The position numbers were made by a program, and so were the translations under genes. A DNA stretch of 64,000 nucleotides from Candidatus Latescibacterota bacterium (lineage in GTDB: Bacteria; Latescibacterota; CBDEFO01): contig OZ252149.1 in the NCBI GenBank assembly GCA_965248755.1, forward strand, positions 1,312,001 through 1,376,000, read 5' to 3'. The number at the start of each line of letters is the position of its first letter. Position 1 is the first letter of the stretch. The notes beneath the pieces are model-generated. The model was not told the DNA's origin, did not search any database, and saw only the letters and a list, made by a program, of their open reading frames with translations. Positions 3,875 through 54,834 of this stretch are shown piece by piece.

Positions 3875-5500
3875 CCGACATTCCCCATATCACATTCATG
3901 AGGGATTATATTTCGATACATTCTTGTTTCTGAATTAATATTACCACTTTTACATTTTTCAACAAGTACTTTTTTCAATTAAAATAGTATTTTCCTCTGA
4001 ATTATCACTTTCTTTGTGTTTAAATCCTCCAATTAGAGACACCTCTCCATCGACTCACAAAAAAATGTGGCAGTTTAAACAGAATAACATCGCAATCGTT
4101 CAATCCGGGATAATATTTCGGCAAATAACCTCTTGTCTATCCCAACCTCAGCCATTTGAAACGTAATATATCCGCTGTGTCTGACAATCTTCGCTCCGAT
4201 TTTGATAAATTTCACGAGGAGGCTGCGTAGTGACCAGTGTTTGATTTTCTTCGGAAGAACAAAACGTCGCAGGAAGTTGCCCAAGTTGTAAGCCAGAACA
4301 AACAGCCAGAGCCTCACCTGATTGGAGACGAAACGCTTGCATGAGAGTCGGGTCCAGTTCAGAGCATACTTGCCCTCCTTAATCCACTGCTCAGCTCTGC
4401 CACGGCCATTGTAGAAGTGTACCACGCCTTCTGGCTTGGCGCTCATGTTGGTCACGATAAATCCCACTCTTGGGAATAACTCCCCTTGGTGCCATTCAAC
4501 CTTGGCGACCACTCGCCTCGATTGATCCCAACTGGCCGCTTTATATTGAAATTCATATAACGATACAATCGGTTTCCTCGGCGGTCGTCCAACTGGCCGA
4601 GTCAGCAGGTATCGTATCTTTTCATAGAGTATCTCATTTGCGGGAAGCCGAATGGCATACAAATAGCCGTTTCCCTCCAGATAATCATAAATCTCAGGCT
4701 TTGCGAATGCAGCATCGCCTCGAAAGTATTTCCTATTCTTCTTGCTCTCGTATCTCTTGACGATCGGTTCCAGAACTTCCTTCCAACGATCAGCACTGTG
4801 AACATTACCAGAGCGAAGTAGGACTCCTTCACAATCCCCGAACTGATTGAAGCAGAACACTGGATGAAAACAGGTACATCCGAAATGACCGTTGTAAGCT
4901 GATCCTTCCTGCTGGCCATGTACCGGACTCTCCGAACTGTCCATGTCCAGAATGATTCGTTGATGCTGTGTTTTACTCATCGCTTTTTGAACCCACTTGC
5001 CATTGATATCTGACAAGTTTCTGAGATTGTCATGCTGAGTCAGTATATCAGTTTCAAAACGTCCTATCGTGTTGGAGCTGGCAGCTTGCCTGCCTTTGTC
5101 CTTCTTTCCGGTAATCGCTCGCATGACGGGATCAACGGATAATCGCTCGGCGTCATTTACATCTTCATATCCTGCAAGACGGCTGTATATCGATTGACGC
5201 AGGAGAGTAGATATATCATGTTGGATATTACGGCCTGTGCGTTTATCGGTAAAAACCGCTGATACCGAATCAAATAATCCCAGTGCGTAATCAAGGTCAC
5301 GATACGCAAGAAGTCCACCGTTTGATGTCACCTTTGCACCATGAAATTCAAGCTTTATTCCTCCATCAAAACCTACTTTGATTCTTTCACCCTCTGGATG
5401 ATCAATATTTATCCGCCATTTATGAGTCTTATTTATTGTAATATAACATGTTCTGGCGACTTTGACAACCATTTTTCGGGTCTAATATGGCGAATGGGGG
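3875..5500 (-). mobile_element. IS1380-family insertion sequence
   Basis: 16-bp imperfect TIRs (CCGACATTCCCCATAT / CCCCCATTCGCCATAT); 5-bp target duplication GTTGA at 3870-3874 and 5501-5505. Confidence 0.92.
4075..5472 (-). CDS. IS1380-family DDE transposase
   Basis: GYEDVND, ILDMDSS, RGDAAF and YNGRGRAEQWIKEGK motifs. Confidence 0.93.
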   Translation of the reverse strand: MVVKVARTCYITINKTHKWRINIDHPEGERIKVGFDGGIKLEFHGAKVTSNGGLLAYRDLDYALGLFDSVSAVFTDKRTGRNIQHDISTLLRQSIYSRLAGYEDVNDAERLSVDPVMRAITGKKDKGRQAASSNTIGRFETDILTQHDNLRNLSDINGKWVQKAMSKTQHQRIILDMDSSESPVHGQQEGSAYNGHFGCTCFHPVFCFNQFGDCEGVLLRSGNVHSADRWKEVLEPIVKRYESKKNRKYFRGDAAFAKPEIYDYLEGNGYLYAIRLPANEILYEKIRYLLTRPVGRPPRKPIVSLYEFQYKAASWDQSRRVVAKVEWHQGELFPRVGFIVTNMSAKPEGVVHFYNGRGRAEQWIKEGKYALNWTRLSCKRFVSNQVRLWLFVLAYNLGNFLRRFVLPKKIKHWSLRSLLVKFIKIGAKIVRHSGYITFQMAEVGIDKRLFAEILSRIERLRCYSV

Positions 5501-9693: not shown

Positions 9694-9765
9694 GCCTAAC
9701 AACCAAGCTCTCCAGCCGTTATGCAACGTAGCGGAAAAGCGGTGGGGCGCGTGGTCATGTTATGT
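9694..9765 (-). other. Integron attC site (72 bp)
   Basis: Minus strand ACATAAC...GTTAGGC imperfect palindrome; clear paralogue of the 10685 site. Confidence 0.8.
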
Positions 9766-10684: not shown

Positions 10685-10756
10685 AGCTAACAACCAAGCT
10701 CACCAGCCGTTATACAACGTACCGGAATAGCGGTCAGGTGTAGCGCCTTGTTATAT
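10685..10756 (-). other. Integron attC site (72 bp)
   Basis: Minus strand ATATAAC...GTTAGCT, 4 nt after the stop of 10761-11558. Confidence 0.85.
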
Positions 10757-10760
10757 TTCA

Positions 10761-11558
10761 TTATTCTCGAATCGAAATAATTTCCATTCCAATTCTATAT
10801 CTTTCGCTTATGCTATAAGTTAAGGGGTTAAATCCATGCTCAGTTAATAATGAATAAAGGAGCTTCCGTCCAAAATTATGGTAATGCTCTATTTCTATCC
10901 AATATGGATTCTTGTTTTCTTTGGTTAAGGCCTTCCAAAGAAACGAATCCATATTAGGACACGATATGAACAATACTCCCCCTGGTATTAACAATTTATG
11001 AGCATGAGAAAGTGCTTCCCTTGGGTACGGCATATGTTCCAAAATGTCGGCCATCGAAATTACTGTAAAGCTGTTAAATTGTTTAAAATCTTTTAATTCC
11101 ATGCAGTGAGCTTCAAATTCTAGTTGCTTCATTTTGTCTACAGCTATTTGGCGAAGATCAATACCAACTGGCTCAAAACCATATTCTTCACATGTTGTCA
11201 TTAATGAACCGTTACCAAAACCAACATCCAACCATTTACCTTTCTTGCCATTTAAGATAGAAGATACTTTATCAATCATTCTTGCATAAAAATATCGAAA
11301 CTTCTCAACATCCTTAACATTAAATAACTGATAGTCATGGGTTTTGCTAAAAAGAATATCTGTCGCCTCTTTAGTAAAGTATCCATCTGCAAAACTGTGA
11401 CCACAGGTATTACATTGCTGCCAGTTTATAAATCCAGGAAGTTCCGAATTGTATAGAGGGTAAGACCGACAGTCAGCAGAAATCGACAAATTAAAACTTG
11501 TAGACTCACACAAAGGGCAACATCTATACAGTTGCCTGGACTTTTCGATTAATGGCAT
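10761..11558 (-). CDS. Class I SAM-dependent methyltransferase with N-terminal Cys motifs (gene cassette)
   Basis: CPLC...CNTC, LDVGFGNG, DILEHMP; AT-rich. Confidence 0.9.
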   Translation of the reverse strand: MPLIEKSRQLYRCCPLCESTSFNLSISADCRSYPLYNSELPGFINWQQCNTCGHSFADGYFTKEATDILFSKTHDYQLFNVKDVEKFRYFYARMIDKVSSILNGKKGKWLDVGFGNGSLMTTCEEYGFEPVGIDLRQIAVDKMKQLEFEAHCMELKDFKQFNSFTVISMADILEHMPYPREALSHAHKLLIPGGVLFISCPNMDSFLWKALTKENKNPYWIEIEHYHNFGRKLLYSLLTEHGFNPLTYSISERYRIGMEIISIRE

Positions 11559-14055: not shown

Positions 14056-14755
14056 TCAAATAAACAGACATTTTCGCCATTTGACATCCCCCGGCTCCGT
14101 CGCCGGGTCTCTGAGCCCCCAGTTTAACTCCCCTTCTCCATGGAACGAGTTCTCTTCCGGCCTGGTATCAAGAGTGTAGTTCTTTGCACTGTCATCTATG
14201 GACTTCCCTCCAGCCCAACGTCTTGCTTTACGGTGGGCGAGTCCAGCACCGTACCGTGCACGCATCTTGTTAGCTTTCCGTCTACTTTTTAACCGATCGC
14301 GGTAGACTCCGGGAGATAAGCCTTTGATCTCAACTGCACCTACCGCTTTTGCGTAGAAATCAGCAGGACCAACCCCGCCTATGATTGCGTAACCGTATCC
14401 GTTTGCCGCCATAGCGTGTAGACAGCACAGTAACAATGCTTTGCCAATTCCGCAAGAGAGCTTCTCTTCGACAACACCTGTGGGTCCGAAGAAATTCTTG
14501 CAGGTGCAGTCATAACAGGCAATACCTATGATCTCGCCTTCCTCTGTGGCTAGAAAACAGGAAATGGGATGGTTACTGAAAGCAACGTCGCTTTCACTTG
14601 TCCACTCACCGACAAATTTGCCGTCGACCCATTTGATCACCTCGGATTTTTCGTAGGACATCGCACGACGGACACCTACCCCCTGTTCCCTTAGACCCTT
14701 GAATAGAAGGCTCTACTGCGGGGAGATCATACAACTTCACCAGCATATCAAACAT
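14056..14755 (-). pseudogene. GNAT acetyltransferase cassette, frameshifted near the 5' end and reading through its attC
   Basis: MFDMLVKLYDLP start at 14755 is out of frame with ...RRAMSYEKSEV; FGPTGV, GIGKALL, YAIIGG motifs. Confidence 0.75.
14213..14275 (-). other. Integron attC site (63 bp)
   Basis: Minus strand AGCTAAC...GTTGGGC with internal imperfect palindrome. Confidence 0.8.
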
Positions 14756-14784
14756 ATGGCTCAGGCCTCCCATTAATTTTCAAA

Positions 14785-14830
14785 GGCGAACTATTAGTTA
14801 ACCAAAATAACTTTCAGTTATCATAACTTA
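14785..14830 (-). other. attI-like site 1
   Basis: GGTTAAC-5 nt-GTTCGCC; homology with the 18305 site stops exactly at the GTT crossover. Confidence 0.7.
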
Positions 14831-14853
14831 GATAATGATTGAAACCAATTTCC

Positions 14854-14882
14854 AATTTATTGTTATACCCTTTGAAAGTCAA
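14854..14882 (-). promoter_or_regulatory. Pc-like cassette promoter 1
   Basis: TTGACT-17 nt-TAAATT pointing into attI-1; both boxes conserved in copy 2. Confidence 0.6.
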
Positions 14883-15113
14883 CCATATTAATTCATGTCT
14901 AATTTTGAAACAAATAGTGCAAACTCCGATATTTTGGTACTGCTTTCCTTGACAGAGCGACAAGAATTTTGCAGTAGGGATACCCCTCCCATGTCTGCTC
15001 AAAATAGCATTCCTTCAAATGTTTATTGACAACTTTCTGTTTTATGCTTAAGCTGTTGGCACAGCAATGGAAGGAAACATCTATTACAAGAAGACCAATA
15101 TGGAGGTTGAAAT

Positions 15114-15275
15114 ATGACTTATGACTTGCTTGTCAAAGGCGGGATGCTCGTCGACCCTGCACTGAAGCTCCACGCGAAAAAGGACGTGGCTTTTACAAAT
15201 TCCGTCGTTTCCACTGTCGGTGATGATCTGCCTAAGACGGAGGCGCGCGAGGTGCTGGACGCAAGTGGTCGAATC
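15114..15275 (+). pseudogene. Truncated copy of the amidohydrolase gene (first ~54 codons)
   Basis: MTYDLLVKGG...VLDASGRI nearly identical to the 18635 gene, then similarity ends. Confidence 0.9.
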
Positions 15276-15482
15276 TCACGCCATGCTGGTTTGGGGAAGT
15301 CCTTCTCCTTGCGGTAGAAATACGTTGGCTGCGAAAGCCCTTCGAACGAACGATCCCGGATCATCTCTGCCCACAAGCCAGGGATCAGGTCATTTATAAA
15401 CTCCACAGAATTGACCATAATTGAAGGGACTGATGGTCCCGTCAAAGACAGGATTCCGTGTAATCTTGATCTGCGAATTCAT
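15276..15482 (-). pseudogene. Truncated, frameshifted cassette gene resembling a GH51 arabinofuranosidase N-terminus
   Basis: ISPFNYGQF / VEFINDLIPGLWAEMIRDRSFEG in two frames, just downstream of the attC at 15531. Confidence 0.6.
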
Positions 15483-15530
15483 TAAGAGACCTATTCTCTG
15501 GAGAGGAATGCCAGTTCTACTCTTACTGCT

Positions 15531-15587
15531 GCCGAACGTGTGCTTCAGGCGCGGTTTCCAGCCGTCGGCTGGAAACAGTAGTTATGC
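15531..15587 (-). other. Integron attC site (57 bp)
   Basis: Minus strand GCATAAC (contains the TAA stop of 15582-16469)...GTTCGGC. Confidence 0.85.
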
Positions 15588-16469
15588 ATTACCCTGATCG
15601 ACCCAGTCGAGCTCTGCAATCCGGAAGCCCGTCAGATCAGGCAGTAATGCCGCAATGTAGTACCGTCCCCTGTGTTCTATGATCTCCGGTGCGGCAACGG
15701 GCAGTGTCCCCACATAGAAACGATCGTCGTCGATTCCGAAACTCAGCGGGTCAGGCGAGCAGTATTGTGTATTAAGGTTGTCCACCCCATATCTCTTATT
15801 GCGGAACAGACAGAACAATCCCTCGACTTCAACGACGAATGGACATTCACAATTTCCTAACCAACCAGTTTGTCTGGCGGCGGCCCCTCCCGCACACACA
15901 ACAACGGGATCGCTCCAATCGAGGAGATCGGGAGAAGTACGGCAGAAGACGGCTGCCGCCGGCTTTGCGTCTTCCTTGTGCCCCATGTAGTAGCAGTGAA
16001 AAACACCGTCGACCGTCAGAACCATGGGGTCGCGGCTGTTCTCGTACGGCCCGGAAAAGAGGTCGGGTTGGCCGTTTTTACCCAACACGCGCTCGAACGA
16101 TTTTCCGTCCCTGCTCCTGGCAAGGCAAATGCGATTCCAGTCTCCATAGAACATGTAGTACGTGTCGTTCTCTTTGATGACATGTGGGGCCTGAAGGCCG
16201 CCTTCCGTCTCGCCGAGGTCAACCCTTGCCTCCATGGCGACGCCCTTCGGCTCCCAATGCTCCTGCTTTAGGTCTGTTCCCTCCCATCTGTAGAACAGCC
16301 GCGTCTGTCCGCCGCAGGCGGTGTGTCTGATGCAGGACCACAGCTGCCAAGTGCTGTCTTCTGCTTGCCATACTGCGAAATCAACAGGCTGCTGGTGAGG
16401 TGTTCCGTAATGTCTCAGATTAGGATTGCCCGCCACTTGCCACCACTGACTGCTTATCTGAGGCCGCAT
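15582..16469 (-). CDS. Beta-propeller glycoside hydrolase (GH32/43-like) gene cassette
   Basis: QAPHV, RDPMV, ECPFV and APEI motifs; cassette start GTTATGC is exactly complementary to its attC R'' GCATAAC. Confidence 0.82.
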   Translation of the reverse strand: MRPQISSQWWQVAGNPNLRHYGTPHQQPVDFAVWQAEDSTWQLWSCIRHTACGGQTRLFYRWEGTDLKQEHWEPKGVAMEARVDLGETEGGLQAPHVIKENDTYYMFYGDWNRICLARSRDGKSFERVLGKNGQPDLFSGPYENSRDPMVLTVDGVFHCYYMGHKEDAKPAAAVFCRTSPDLLDWSDPVVVCAGGAAARQTGWLGNCECPFVVEVEGLFCLFRNKRYGVDNLNTQYCSPDPLSFGIDDDRFYVGTLPVAAPEIIEHRGRYYIAALLPDLTGFRIAELDWVDQGNA

Positions 16470-16491
16470 GCTAATTCCTCCTATTCAGAAT

Positions 16492-16553
16492 GCATAACGT
16501 CATGCGGCTAACACGCGCGGTCCTCCGCGTCGGTGTGCAGCCGCTTGTTCGGT
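16492..16553 (-). other. Integron attC site (62 bp)
   Basis: Minus strand ACCGAAC aagcggctgcacaccgacgcgg...ccgcgcgtgttagccgcatgac GTTATGC. Confidence 0.88.
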
Positions 16554-16682
16554 AAATATCGTCTGAATATGTTTGAGAAATCGTCCTACATCGGGAACTC
16601 AAGCGGGTACCCGCCGTTTGCCTTGTTATGTCTGACCCAGGAAATTTGACCGCTTTGGTATTGTAGCCGACGCCGAACCGGA

Positions 16683-17591
16683 CTACGCATCGGGTCCATA
16701 AGACGGAATTGTCCAGTTGTGACCCAACGAACGCTGGAAGTCCTGATACTCACTCAGGATGTCATCGCGGCCCAGAAATGTCTTATAAACCAGTCGGCCG
16801 TTCCATTGTCCTTCTGGCTGCTCTGCAGGATCCCTCGCATAGAGGAAGAAATCCCACGCCGGGTTACGGTCCGAACGATCTTCGACAAAGCCACCTCCGC
16901 CCATGCCGTGCGAGATCACGACGCCACGAGGACTTTCAAACATCAACACGAACACCATGTCACCACGGCGGCCCAACATCATCGGAACAGTGTACCGAAT
17001 GGGTGCACGCGATGTATACAATCCGCGGTCATGTGCCCCGAAATGCAAATCGTACGAATCGGCTTCCCAGGTTACCGCACTGTCTCGACCCTGAAACGTC
17101 GTACAGAACTGAATCCACATCAGCGCGTCATAGGCATCCCGACTCAACAGGTAAATAGCCTTGTTCTCCGGTTGATGGATGTAATTGGCAAAGAAGAAAC
17201 CGGCAAATTCCGTGGGAAACGCCCCTGAATCATGCAGGCGATAGCGGAAAGTCCAATCCACGTGGGAAGGGCCTGCCGTCCGATAGGTCATCCAACTCTC
17301 GACATGGTGCGTGGGGGTGGGCGTCTGGTACAGAGTGACCTGACGCAGTTTGTCATCAACGAGCAATTCCGTCGGGTGATCTTTGGGCTCCGTCGCGTGC
17401 GGAGCAGACAAGGGAGCAATGAACTCAAAGTTCATACCGCAAAACCTGGGCACGAACAAGGGTCGACAATCGTGAACTGATGTGATCTGCCAGATGCCGT
17501 TGTATCCTGCTTGGTGGTCCTGATGCGCGGAGTTGTCCCCAATCAGAAGTGACAATTCCTCGGTCTGCAACTGATGAAAATGTTGCGACAT
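16683..17591 (-). CDS. Conserved hypothetical protein (possibly galactose-mutarotase-like), gene cassette
   Basis: Long ORF with HQAGYNG, GFFFANYI and GGG..NPAWDF; lies between attC sites. Confidence 0.7.
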   Translation of the reverse strand: MSQHFHQLQTEELSLLIGDNSAHQDHQAGYNGIWQITSVHDCRPLFVPRFCGMNFEFIAPLSAPHATEPKDHPTELLVDDKLRQVTLYQTPTPTHHVESWMTYRTAGPSHVDWTFRYRLHDSGAFPTEFAGFFFANYIHQPENKAIYLLSRDAYDALMWIQFCTTFQGRDSAVTWEADSYDLHFGAHDRGLYTSRAPIRYTVPMMLGRRGDMVFVLMFESPRGVVISHGMGGGGFVEDRSDRNPAWDFFLYARDPAEQPEGQWNGRLVYKTFLGRDDILSEYQDFQRSLGHNWTIPSYGPDA

Positions 17592-17706
17592 AACCCCATT
17601 CCTTTCCGTCCGACGAAATAAAGGTCTCTGGAAGAGGGCGGGAGAACCGTGTCTGCTCAAGAGCGATTTCCCCCGCTCTTTTGTTCTCTAGCACCTTGCC
17701 GTTTGA

Positions 17707-17779
17707 GCCTAACGCTTGAACTCATGTGCTATGAATGAGCGCCAGCGAATACATAGTCAGGTGGAGTGATTCGTTAGGC
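17707..17779 (-). other. Integron attC site (73 bp)
   Basis: Minus strand GCCTAAC...GTTAGGC, 8 nt after the stop at 17788. Confidence 0.88.
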
Positions 17780-17787
17780 AAAACATT

Positions 17788-18284
17788 TCAGCAAGGTCTT
17801 TCTTCAGTTTGTTCTATCATGGCACGAAGCATCTGAATACGTCCAATATGTACCCCAGTATGTCCTACGGTCTGGTAAAGTACCCTGGCAACCGAATTCC
17901 CTTCAAACGAAGACTCAGGAATATTGTGATAGTCGTCATCTGCTAAATTAGAAATAAAATTATGAGTCAGACTACGAACTTGTCGGAACCATTCGTTAAC
18001 CGCATCAACATTGTCTATACGTTTTCGAACAACTTCCGGAGCAGGCCAATCTACACCAAAAATGTCGTATTTTCTGGGAATAATCTCTTCCTCCTTTTGG
18101 GCTTGAAGCAAAACGCCGACATGAAATCGCTCTCTATGTGCAATATGTCCAATATGCACATAGACTTTTCTGATGTGGCACCCCAAAAAAGTTGCTCCTC
18201 GGATAATCCTTCTGTTTCTTTCACTGGATCAGCATACCAGTAAGCCATGCCCAAAAGCCCAATGTGCTGCATCATTCCATTCAT
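17788..18284 (-). pseudogene. DinB-family gene cassette, frameshifted
   Basis: GLSEEQLFW in one frame; HIGHIAHRE...HTGVHIGRIQMLR in another. Confidence 0.75.
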
Positions 18285-18304
18285 TCATATTATTGCTCCT
18301 TCTT

Positions 18305-18350
18305 GCCCAACCAAAAATTAACCAAGTTGGTTTCCAGTTACCGTAACTTA
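18305..18350 (-). other. attI-like site 2
   Basis: GGTTAAT-5 nt-GTTGGGC directly upstream of the first cassette RBS (AAGGAG). Confidence 0.72.
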
Positions 18351-18374
18351 GAGAATGATTCATAACTAATCTGC

Positions 18375-18403
18375 AATTTACTGTTAAAACCCTTGAAAGT
18401 CAA
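18375..18403 (-). promoter_or_regulatory. Pc-like cassette promoter 2
   Basis: TTGACT-17 nt-TAAATT. Confidence 0.6.
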
Positions 18404-18634
18404 CCATATTATTTCATGTCTAATTCTGAAACAAATAGTGTAAGCTCCGATATTTTGGTACTGCCCTCCTTGACAGAGCGACAAGAATTTTGCAGTAGGG
18501 ATACCCCTCCCATGTCTGCTCAAAATAGCATTCCCTCAAATTTTTATTGACAACTTTCTGTTTTATGCTTAAGCTGTTGGCACAGCAATGGAAGGAAACA
18601 TCCGTTACAAGAAGACGAATATGGAGGTTGAAAT

Positions 18635-19774
18635 ATGACTTATGACTTGCTTGTCAAAGGCGGGACGCTCGTAGACCCTGCACTGAAGCTCCACGCGAAA
18701 AAGGACGTGGCTTTTACAAGTGGCGTCGTTTCCGCTGTCGGTGATGATCTGCCTAAGACGGAGGCGCGTGAGGTGCTGGACGCAAGTGGCCGCATCGTCA
18801 CGCCAGGGATGATCGATTTGCACGTCCATGTGTTCTACGGCGTCAGCCACTTCGGCATCGAGCCTGACCCTACCTGTCTGGCTAAGGGAGCAACCACAGT
18901 GGTCGACGCAGGTTCTGCGGGAGCGGACACCTTTCCGGGCTTTCGCAAGTATGTGATTGACGTGAGCGGGACGCGCATCCTGGCGCAGCTCAACATTGCG
19001 TCACAGGGGATGCTGACCCTCGAAATCGGAGAGTTCGAAATCCCTGAGTACGCAAATGTGGACAAAGCGTGCCAGATGATAGAAAAGCACCGCGATGTGA
19101 TTCTGGGTGTGAAGGTTCGACTCACAAAGAACCTCATCGTCAGCGAGAGGTCAGGGATGTCGCCCCTGCACCGAGCGCGCGAGGCCGCAGACGCGGCCGG
19201 ATTGCCCATCATGGTTCATCCGCAGGATGCCTGGTGCGGTTCGATTGACGATATTCTAGCCGTTATGCGCAAGCGAGACATCCTGACTCACTGCTTCCAC
19301 GGTATGGCGTGCGGCATCCTGGACGATCATGGTCAAGTGCGAAAATCGGTGCGTGAGGCGATGGAGCGCGGCGTCGTTTTCGATGTTGGGCACGGGGCAG
19401 GATCGTTCAACTGGAAGGTTGCTGAACGAGCGATGGAGCAGGGAGTCGAGCCTCAAACTATCTCATCGGACCTGCACATTTACAACATAGACGGTCCCGT
19501 CTACGACCTGGCGACGGTGGTTACCAAGTTTCTTCGTCTGGGCTTAACGCTCGACAACGCGATCGCGAAGGTTACGGCTGTTCCTGCTCAGACAATTTTG
19601 ATGCCAGATAAAATCGGTACACTCTCGGTCGGAGCATGGGGCGATGCGGTCGTCTTCGAATTACGTTCAGGAGAATTCCAGTTGCAGGACACGGACGGCG
19701 ACATGCGCATCGGCAAGCAGAAGCTCGTTCCCGTGGCGGTCGTCAAGGGCGGGCGGGTCTATCGGCAGAGCTGA
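18635..19774 (+). CDS. Amidohydrolase/deacetylase (dihydroorotase-like) metallohydrolase
   Basis: PGMIDLHVH, DAGSAG, GVKVR, THCFHG, DVGHG, ISSDLH. Confidence 0.92.
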   Translation: MTYDLLVKGGTLVDPALKLHAKKDVAFTSGVVSAVGDDLPKTEAREVLDASGRIVTPGMIDLHVHVFYGVSHFGIEPDPTCLAKGATTVVDAGSAGADTFPGFRKYVIDVSGTRILAQLNIASQGMLTLEIGEFEIPEYANVDKACQMIEKHRDVILGVKVRLTKNLIVSERSGMSPLHRAREAADAAGLPIMVHPQDAWCGSIDDILAVMRKRDILTHCFHGMACGILDDHGQVRKSVREAMERGVVFDVGHGAGSFNWKVAERAMEQGVEPQTISSDLHIYNIDGPVYDLATVVTKFLRLGLTLDNAIAKVTAVPAQTILMPDKIGTLSVGAWGDAVVFELRSGEFQLQDTDGDMRIGKQKLVPVAVVKGGRVYRQS

Positions 19775-23019: not shown

Positions 23020-23185
23020 GTTGAACCCGTGCGTGGTGTGTCAGACTGTCTGAGACGCAAGCGGGTACACAACAATTGCTGCCCTACGGACTTCATTATC
23101 GGCATTCTATTGTCGTGGGTCAGTCCCCGATTGAATCTATCGGGACCTGTCTGACACGCAGATTTGGGGAAACGGAAGGAGACGC

Positions 23186-34913: not shown

Positions 34914-34969
34914 CTGAATATCCCTGAATATCCCTGAATATCCCTGAATATCCCTGAATATCCCTGAAT
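34914..34969 (+). repeat. Tandem repeat, 10-bp unit CTGAATATCC, five full units plus a partial one
   Basis: Directly visible. Confidence 0.95.
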
Positions 34970-34993
34970 TAATCTGGTACGCCTCTATTGAAT

Positions 34994-38385: not shown

Positions 38386-38620
38386 TAGCCCGATTAGTTC
38401 ATAAACTTGGTGGAGTCATCGCGAGGAGCAAAGCGACAAAGCAATCTCAAGGTTTTATAGTGGTCTCCGATGAGAGCCGGAGAGTATTACATCTACCACA
38501 GCATCGAGATTGCTTCGCCTTCGGCTCGCAATGACACCGAAGGTGGTTAAACCGCATAACTATAATATAATACAATCCCTTAATTAATACAGGGGCTTTT
38601 TTTGTGAATTATTCCGGTTA
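38386..38620 (+). mobile_element. MITE copy 2 (235 bp)
   Basis: TA-GCCCGATTAGTTCA...TGAATTATTCCGGT-TA. Confidence 0.88.
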
Positions 38621-43838: not shown

Positions 43839-44477
43839 ATGTTTTTTCTGATGATCCTTATTGTTTCAACTTCTAAAGCACTGCGGGCAGAAAGTTATTA
43901 CAGCTCTAAACTCCGCCAGATAATATCCGAAACATCTGTCTTTGAAGGCAACTTTGTTATAACTGTTATCCCGCTGACTGAGGAACTTACAGCCGCCAAA
44001 GTCTACGCCAAGATGAGTAAGGAGGGACACAGCAGACAAGAGATAAGAGAAGAAATAAAAAAGAAGACGCAAAAGGAGAAAAAGCTTATTGCGATAATAA
44101 CGGTAAAGTTTAAGGGTGATTCTCTGTCGCAGGCTCCGACAGCAATTTCTCTACCCGAAGATCTGTCAAAATACATATTTGTCGAAAACGACAGGAGCAA
44201 CTTCGTCCCATGCAAGATAGCCAGACCGGCCGTGGAGCAGGTGGATTCAGATCAAAGTTCTGCTGTCATCCCTTTAGTTTTCCATACAGAGTACCAAAAG
44301 GGCAAGAAGGAACACAATATCTTAGAGGATACGGAATACATCGAATTTGTCGTAGGAGGCCTGGGCTTTTCCAACAACCGCATCCGCTACGACACCCCCT
44401 TAAGCGATCTATGCAAAGATGCTTCACAGGATATCAAGAGTCTGTGGGAAGAGGCAAGGGACAATAGCTCTTTCTAA
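43839..44477 (+). CDS. Hypothetical secreted protein
   Basis: Long ORF with hydrophobic N-terminus. Confidence 0.6.
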   Translation: MFFLMILIVSTSKALRAESYYSSKLRQIISETSVFEGNFVITVIPLTEELTAAKVYAKMSKEGHSRQEIREEIKKKTQKEKKLIAIITVKFKGDSLSQAPTAISLPEDLSKYIFVENDRSNFVPCKIARPAVEQVDSDQSSAVIPLVFHTEYQKGKKEHNILEDTEYIEFVVGGLGFSNNRIRYDTPLSDLCKDASQDIKSLWEEARDNSSF

Positions 44478-44707
44478 CCCGATTAATTCATAAACTTGGT
44501 GGAGTCATTGCGAGGAGCAAAGCGACGAAGCAATCTCAAGGTTTTATAGTGGTCTCCTATGAGAGCCGGAGAGTATTACATCTACCACAGAATCGAGATT
44601 GCTTCGCCTCCGGTTCGCAATGACACCGAAGGTGGTTAAACGGCATAACTATAACCTAATACAATCCCTTAATTAATAGACGGCTTTTTTGTGAATTATT
44701 CGGGCTA
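44475..44707 (+). mobile_element. MITE copy 3
   Basis: TA-ACCCGATTAATTCA...TGAATTATTCGGGC-TA. Confidence 0.9.
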
Positions 44708-54211: not shown

Positions 54212-54446
54212 TAGCCCGAATAATTCACACAAAAAGGCCGTGTATTAATTAAGGGATTGTATTATATTATAGTTATGCTGTTTAAGCTCCTTCGGTGTCC
54301 TTGCGAGCCGAAGGCGAAGCAATCTCGATTCTGTGGTAGATGTAATACTCTCCGGCTCTCATAGGAGACCACTATAAAACCGTGAGATTGCTTCGTCGCT
54401 TTGGTCCCCGCAATGACTCCACCAAGTTTATGAATTAATCGCGTTA
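54212..54446 (-). mobile_element. MITE copy 4 (inverted)
   Basis: Reverse complement of the 44475 element, with TA ends. Confidence 0.9.
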
Positions 54447-54834
54447 GAAAAGTTTTTCTCAGAAAAACGCGTCATCCAATGGCCAGGGATCGCATAAACG
54501 CTGCAGTGACACGACACGTTTTGGTAGCCCCCAAAACGCGTCACTCTGACAAAAATCTGTCCAGATTCTCCTTCGGAACAGCATCATAAACTTCTATCTT
54601 CGAGGCAGGGTTATGGAGGATCTCGAAGAGCTTGTCAAAATCTTCCTTCAAGGCTGTACCGTGGTAGTAGGTCTTCCTATCTTTTCTTTCCCTCCCTTTT
54701 TTAAATCTCTTATTCATTCATCTGCCGAAAGCCTGTGCACTTTGCGGCCGTTCTCTTCACGCCATTTCAAATGTTCCCTGTATGCCCTGCCTGCTTCCAC
54801 CCTCTGGACAAACAATCTTGACGGAGGAGGATAG

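Follow-up and report, generated by a model that had tools for sequence, protein, structure and literature searches.

How does a bacterial chromosome come to carry what looks like the recombination platform of an integron twice in tandem, each copy followed by a different gene, when an amidohydrolase gene occupies the place where the integrase gene should be? The question is raised by a 64,000-nucleotide stretch of contig OZ252149.1 from a Candidatus Latescibacterota bacterium (positions 1,312,001 to 1,376,000; 'the window' below means this whole stretch, and coordinates count from its first letter), in which a ~490-bp segment occurs at 14789-15275 and again at 18309-18796. A first-pass annotation had read these copies as integrase-less platforms composed of an attachment site (attI) and a cassette promoter (Pc). 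This reading is supported by the cassette junctions and by the pairing of the cassette ends (R' with R''), which indicate that platforms with attI and Pc-like parts head real cassettes here.

The window belongs to a genome (G000) that consists of a single contig, is 98% complete and has a GC content of 49%. It was compared with a sister species of the same genus (G001, genome 96% complete), with contigs assembled from short-read runs of other studies (X1, X5, X6 and X11) and with the genomes of the phylum (168 in all, of which the 166 other than G000 and G001 were searched for the unit described below). Platform copies are numbered 1 and 2 in G000 and lettered A, B and C in G001, where B is the orthologue of copy 1 and A is the position equivalent of copy 2.

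A duplicated unit with the layout of an attI simple site

The duplication itself is real. The tandem is also present in G001 and in contigs of other studies, and its presence in G001, together with one X1 contig that spans 14946-18496 without a gap, excludes a misassembly; contigs from X5, X6 and X11, which extend over the platform of copy 1 or over its junction, carry the G001-type allele. Read from the crossover, the repeat is a composite of an AT-rich unit of ~145 bp, a scar of ~37 bp, and the upstream region and 5' end of an amidohydrolase gene. Its integron-like part is the ~145 bp that hold the promoter boxes, a palindrome and an inverted pair of 7-mers 5 nt apart (L-5-R), up to G/TT. 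The elements that the annotation had picked out, TTGACT-17-TAAATT, the palindrome and GGTTAAY-5 nt-GTT, are found in both copies:

14789..14935, minus strand: platform unit copy 1, ~145 bp, 25% GC; GGTTAAY-5 nt-GTT 14803-14789 (L box 14803-14797, crossover G 14791); palindrome 14828-14816; Pc-like TTGACT-17-TAAATT 14882-14854
18309..18456, minus strand: platform unit copy 2, 30% GC; GGTTAAY-5 nt-GTT 18323-18309 (L box 18323-18317, crossover G 18311); palindrome 18348-18336; Pc-like TTGACT-17-TAAATT 18403-18375

As proposed, the genes behind the two GTTs differ, GNAT following copy 1 and DinB following copy 2. In G001, a third unit (copy C) lies ~5 kb further on, has no amidohydrolase beside it and stands ahead of a CBS-domain gene. 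The three complete unit variants lose their likeness at the same [G/A]TT, ahead of three different cassettes, and in copies 1, 2, B and C an inverted 7-mer lies 5 nt upstream of the 7-mer that starts the cassette. Moreover, the R' at the cassette start pairs with the R'' of its own cassette (GNAT 5/7, DinB 6/7, G001 copy C 6/7), with all six cassette-side bases of R' matching R'' in copy C. An attI simple site is described as an inverted pair of 7-bp sites with the crossover at G/TT (PMC3146285), and the L-5-R layout, the end of similarity at the crossover and the R'/R'' pairing all agree with this description. The unit heads cassettes in five of five copies and is found nowhere else among them; its attI-proximal part comes in four alleles that are 75-80% alike (copies 1 and B, copy 2, copy C, and copy A over its remaining part).

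The upstream elements are conserved as well. The -35 box is invariant in all five copies and the -10 box reads TAAATT in four of them; the Pc-like promoter, which matches the consensus at 9/12 positions and faces the cassettes, is conserved across the five copies. In the palindrome, copies 1 and 2 differ by a compensatory double change that leaves the 6-bp arms perfect. The palindrome opens with a core-like 7-mer, ~36 nt upstream, that agrees at 6/7 positions with the DR1/DR2 words of PMC3146285; this 7-mer is absent in copy C, and accessory core-like direct repeats upstream of the simple site are an optional attI feature (PMC3146285).

Cassettes and attC-like sites behind the platforms

Strict attC heuristics returned 0, 0 and 1 sites and attC sites were therefore picked gene by gene, with the R''..R' layout read directly and folds scored as z values; their alignment was too poor for a covariance model, and Rfam gave 0 matches over the window. 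The cassettes and sites are:

14273..14791, minus strand: GNAT cassette, first behind copy 1; frameshifted near 14703 in G000, intact (166 aa) in G001
14213..14275, minus strand: attC-like site closing the GNAT cassette; R''..R' layout, weak fold (z -1.46)
17788..18311, minus strand: DinB-family cassette (DinB_2), first behind copy 2; 5' part frameshifted; R'/R'' 6/7
17707..17779, minus strand: attC closing the DinB cassette; canonical bottom-strand hairpin, z -2.55
16683..17660, minus strand: second cassette gene behind copy 2; 325 aa, no family match
16506..16561, minus strand: attC-like site 2; fold z -2.48
15582..16469, minus strand: third cassette gene behind copy 2; GH43/GH32-like propeller, below cut-off
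15531..15587, minus strand: attC-like site 3; fold z -2.85, minimum free energy structure not the canonical hairpin
15276..15537, minus strand: fourth cassette behind copy 2; 3'-truncated by the duplicate, glycoside-hydrolase look by eye

The GNAT assignment comes from a Pfam match of the intact G001 orthologue, the G000 fragment having given none, and the fourth cassette matched nothing in Pfam or NCBIfam. The DinB cassette is absent in G001 and in runs X5, X6 and X11. Among the three attC-like sites behind copy 2, just the one that closes the DinB cassette takes up the complete canonical hairpin. In G000 each of the two first cassettes carries a frameshift, and X1 contigs match the frameshift regions gap-free, which suggests that these cassettes are decaying.

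No intact integrase gene in either genome

As the annotation had stated, the window has no IntI: a tblastn search that used two full IntIs as queries gave nothing at E<=1. Its further suggestion, that an IntI encoded elsewhere in the genome might serve the platforms in trans, does not hold, since neither G000 nor G001 has an intact intI. With the IntI profile TIGR02249, 0 of 21 matches in G000 and 0 of 16 in G001 passed the cut-off of the model, and the IntI-like matches in both genomes are C-terminal scraps no longer than 93 aa. All six frames were also searched for motifs of the IntI-specific domain, which occurred four times, never in an integrase. The arrangement of a complete integron, with intI adjacent to attI, is thus found neither in the window nor in G000 or G001, while 17 of the 168 phylum genomes have a full IntI.

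The amidohydrolase is a neighbour joined through an insertion sequence end

The gene next to the unit is indeed an amidohydrolase gene, complete beside copy 2 and truncated beside copy 1. By curated cut-offs it is not a dihydroorotase, as the annotation had suggested: no dihydroorotase model gives it more than 60 bits, where 442-728 would be needed, and the PRK09237 amidohydrolase/deacetylase model is passed instead (410 vs 371 bits). The features on this side are:

18635..19774, plus strand: intact amidohydrolase/deacetylase gene (PRK09237, EF_0837-like), neighbour of copy 2
14974..15283, plus strand: truncated hydrolase duplicate, upstream region and first ~55 codons, ATG at 15114; 276/290 identical to copy 2
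14937..14973, plus strand: insertion sequence (IS) end scar of copy 1, a degenerate end of a 1.26-kb IS3-like element, aligned to the IS end
18458..18494, plus strand: IS-end scar of copy 2, 30/38 identical to the left end of the IS, counted by eye

The hydrolase gene is not a part of the element but a mere neighbour that was joined to it via an IS end, because copy C lacks it, the other phylum genomes match only its coding part and have no unit at their amidohydrolase gene, and the scar lies between the two. The 1.26-kb element carries HTH_Tnp_1 and rve domains, from which layout the label IS3-like was given, and has 68 full-length copies among 118 matches in G000. It is found at G000:C1:462037 and ~70 other places, the full copies being at least 91% identical and many having short target duplications, and ends of this element sit at several platform junctions.

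The two copies differ from upstream of the crossover

The annotation had similarity stopping exactly at the GTT. The end at the GTT is correct, but the likeness is not full up to that point: copies 1 and 2 are identical at 276/290 positions in the hydrolase part, at 60/64 up to the -35 box, and at just 61/81 in the last 81 nt. Differences are therefore concentrated in the attI-proximal stretch (20/81 vs 18/354 upstream, p=6.4e-7). Between copy 1 and its G001 orthologue there is no such concentration (1/81 vs 15/354, p=0.33), and since these two are alike at 80/81 positions the attI-proximal stretch is not hypermutable. An IntI-mediated exchange at G/TT would have left the upstream sequence unchanged, whereas the observed breakpoint lies near the -35 box, which indicates that attI and cassette arrived together. 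The proposed cassette change at the GTT after duplication is thus not supported, given the identity step ~80 nt upstream of the crossover and copy 1 itself, which keeps its GNAT cassette in G001, X5 and X6.

At the other end of the block, the truncated hydrolase meets the fourth cassette at a shared 8-nt word (15276-15283), one base out of register. We infer that the divergent block was added by means of a homology anchor with an illegitimate second junction. Replacement of cassette arrays by homologous recombination without IntI has been shown experimentally in Acinetobacter baylyi (PMC3410848). ComEC is encoded in both G000 and G001, a weak point given that 10 of 14 controls have it too.

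Another allele is seen in G001 copy A: its sequence diverges past the -35 box and stops at the GTT within the palindrome, and no DinB cassette is present. At this place (L059:9010-9050; window joint 17605-18345) the palindrome's GTT is followed by seven unexplained bases and then by the leader of cassette 2, so that copy A ends either through an IntI event at a secondary site or through a deletion.

A second, reverse-type attI family in the same genome

Behind three IntI scraps in G000 lies a stretch of ~190 bp that ends in G/TT and is followed by different genes. By BLAST, this second family has 13 matches in G000, of which 11 reach the crossover and are 89-96% alike over the last 80 nt, and 20 matches in G001 (16 reaching the crossover). 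The G000 copies are:

G000:C1 at 213180, 15579, 3679519, 1397621, 291057, 22421, 380960, 3502207, 21145, 184189 and 20452: second-family copies, each before a different gene

The layout is that of a reverse integron, with attI behind the 3' end of intI and the cassettes co-oriented: C-terminal IntI scraps lie directly upstream in 3/11 G000 copies and in 6/11 loci of another family of the phylum (f6), intI being intact at none of these places. Five genomes of this other family, chosen for having matched, gave 10, 9, 17, 2 and 4 matches; among the five, G047 encodes a full IntI at another place in its genome. The 5' ends of the second family vary and several are IS ends (3/11 junctions in G000); its dispersal by IntI was considered and rejected, as the 5' junctions show no consistent G/TT.

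The interval between tRNA-Ser and tRNA-Ala holds four second-family copies in G000 and five in G001, with no shared cargo, a stacking of the same kind as in the window. This hot spot (G000:C1:14615-24466) lies between two tRNA-Ser genes and tRNA-Ala/dnaX. Two of four orthologous second-family pairs keep their cassette and the other two change it exactly at the crossover, which favours either an exchange by IntI that postdates the split of the lineages or recombination with donors of very similar sequence. An isolated attC-like site at G000:C1:1423346-1423420, between two small minus-strand genes, suggests that more dispersed cassettes exist.

Orphaned platforms as the probable explanation, and its rivals

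The best explanation as a whole, which we consider probable, is that the copies are orphaned platforms in which divergent blocks of attI and cassette were stacked by upstream-anchored recombination and then frozen. Each copy would be an integron platform with an attI simple site, an upstream accessory palindrome and a Pc, whose intI would have been lost at the IS-end scar by which an unrelated amidohydrolase gene is now attached to it. A past IntI would have loaded the cassettes, either here or in donor integrons; the junction signature of this loading is observed and its timing conjectural. The tandem may have formed when a second block was added, by homology on the conserved amidohydrolase/-35 side and illegitimately, through the 8-nt microhomology, on the other. 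The cassette difference would then have travelled with ~80 nt of attI, with no exchange at G/TT, both the recombination route and the foreign origin of the blocks being presumed. As the genome has no intact intI, the platforms would by now be at most promoters for their first cassettes, and decaying, and the reverse-type attI would reflect the same process at a larger scale.

Several results weigh against this explanation or its parts. No homologue of the unit beside an intI was found in the 166 other phylum genomes, nor did the unit lie beside intI in any of 27 loci examined (26 of them around phylum intIs). One scan for the unit pattern gave 0 matches, a scan of GTDB gave ten (two G001-type copies and eight chance matches), and two JGI scans gave 18, all chance and none with an IntI. 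A divergent short frame was no better than shuffles as a 5' stub of intI (300/493 equal or higher, with a profile of 47 long-IntI N-termini), and a homology search for such a stub with two candidate frames found no match at E<=10. No donor was found for any platform allele. The TTGACT-17-TAAATT-type match is weak when taken alone (8 sites in the region vs 4.4+/-2.1 in shuffles), and 3/7 folded attC candidates reach z<=-2.4. In the second family, the two cassette-changing pairs are identical at 77/80 and 74/79 positions just upstream, which looks like IntI exchange, and a crude scan found an attC with matching R'' behind just 2/10 copies, so that not every downstream gene is a proven cassette. 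As the unit was never found beside intI, its identity as attI, which we strongly infer rather than demonstrate, rests on the logic of the junctions, and its attI and Pc functions are predicted from sequence. Two further candidates were discarded: a match in G056 (E=0.009) is a chance match inside a housekeeping gene, and a weak third nhmmer match in G000 (E 2.6) is an attC-like site, not a platform unit.

The copies could instead be live landing pads, duplicated and then reloaded at G/TT by an IntI that was supplied in trans by a passing mobile element or by a gene lost not long ago. All copies do end at the crossover, half of the four orthologous reverse-type sites differ exactly there, and the palindrome GTT at which copy A ends is a possible secondary crossover; full IntIs occur in the phylum, and attC-site clusters without an integron-integrase (CALINs) can, according to one paper, be mobilised in trans (10.1101/2025.06.18.660453). 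We nevertheless hold reloading to be unlikely, with no intact intI in G000 or G001, an identity step in the window pair 80 nt upstream of the crossover and the same copy-1 cassette in G000, G001, X5 and X6; nor did the joints and loose ends covered for the four runs reveal a new cassette at either GTT (75 loose ends lay outside). Somewhat less likely still is vertical decay, in which resident integrons were broken up and copied by the IS3-like element, with the attI-proximal parts diverging in place and gene conversion keeping the upstream parts alike. The 68 full IS copies, and the IS ends at the window junction and at 3/11 second-family junctions in G000, would suit this account, as would the listing of intI loss and rearrangement among the sources of CALINs (Cury et al., PMC4889954); yet the attI-proximal part is slow between orthologues (1/81) while the position-equivalent copies 2 and A differ strongly there, and most second-family junctions are not IS ends. 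Least credible to us is that the unit is no attI but a promoter or operator element with a hot secondary (attG-type) site that repeatedly took up cassettes. IntI does insert cassettes at genomic GWT hot spots (10.1101/2022.09.11.507474), and the lack of any unit next to intI is what this view expects, but it sits poorly with an AT-rich unit (25-30% GC vs 49% for the genome) that occurs at cassette heads only, carries an inverted L-5-R pair with a core-like site upstream, and is missing from the amidohydrolase gene of other genomes.

Other features of the window

Two similar attC sites (9694-9765 and 10685-10756) surround methyltransferase genes; in G001 (L059:16150-17240), copy C and the CBS cassette replace the second methyltransferase gene and cut the first attC just before R'. 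A repeat of ~220-240 bp, probably a miniature inverted-repeat transposable element, occurs in several orientations (1-107, 38386-38604, 44475-44693 and 54212-54453), and a copy is inserted in G001 at the position of 11371-11374. A family of ~20-bp palindromic intergenic repeats resembling repetitive extragenic palindromes is found at 23125-23144, 26287, 27523, 53384, 56111 and 61555. A DDE_Tnp_1_4 transposase gene (4075-5472) is absent at the same place in G001, and about six tandem copies of a 10-bp repeat (34914-34975) precede a gene for a sigma-54 response regulator.

Relation to known integrons and implications

By definition the locus is a CALIN (PMC4889954), in a variant that keeps and multiplies its platform; in its working it would correspond to the expression half of an integron. 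As in CALINs, the attC sites number two or more (copy 2 is followed by three attC-like sites, copy 1 by a weak one) with no intI nearby, and intI loss is one listed origin of such clusters; CALINs are, however, treated as attC clusters, whereas here the attI and Pc-like part is kept and duplicated in tandem. Chromosomal integrons with inactivated or deleted intI, such as that of the Xanthomonas ilvD locus, are likewise frozen after integrase loss, their cassettes being common to descendants (10.1101/2025.06.18.660453), but they go back to one ancestral locus, while G000 has two attI families with 13 sites in all, and alleles differing upstream of the crossover. The second family resembles reverse integrons (Treponema denticola, PMC4909258; archaeal attI downstream of intI, 10.1101/2022.02.06.479319) in lying behind the intI stop with cassettes in the same direction, and differs in having just C-terminal intI scraps left and in being multi-copy; the window unit is a separate sequence family, with no intI beside it to orient by. 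Cassettes that sit at scattered chromosomal G/TT sites away from intI, with a promoter close by that expresses them, are also known as attG insertions or single attC sites lacking integron-integrases (SALINs; Loot et al., 10.1101/2022.09.11.507474). An attG is a short genomic GWT site unrelated to attI, with a CRGM right motif. The sites of both our families have the GTT but are repeated homologous platforms of 145-190 bp, and their pre-insertion right half, needed for CRGM, is unreadable. Integrase loss, reverse integrons and attG insertions are thus already known. Provisionally, no paper on tandem or genome-wide multi-copy attI and Pc platforms in intI-less genomes was found among titles and the starts of abstracts, subscription journals and supplements lying outside this search.

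Integrase-less cassette clusters are common, and their origin and expression are open because attI and Pc are recognisable in few classes, attI not being searchable in most integrons (PMC4889954). Taken by itself, the pair in the window is a modest relic, and it is the pattern across the genome that merits attention. Through their repetition, two attI families become visible, with exact crossover points and numerous alleles, in nearly complete genomes without intI, and these families are ready substrates for attI assays. As a tentative extension, for which we claim no more than some plausibility, the attI and Pc platform in this lineage and in family f6 could be a multi-copy expression module decoupled from the integrase, such that intI-less genomes would collect 10-20 blocks of promoter, attI and first cassette, pile them up in tandem at hot spots and renew them through platform-anchored recombination or a visiting IntI, as a distributed, integrase-free integron. 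Our observations suggest that cassettes might spread and be expressed as blocks of promoter and attI, with no integrase in the recipient.

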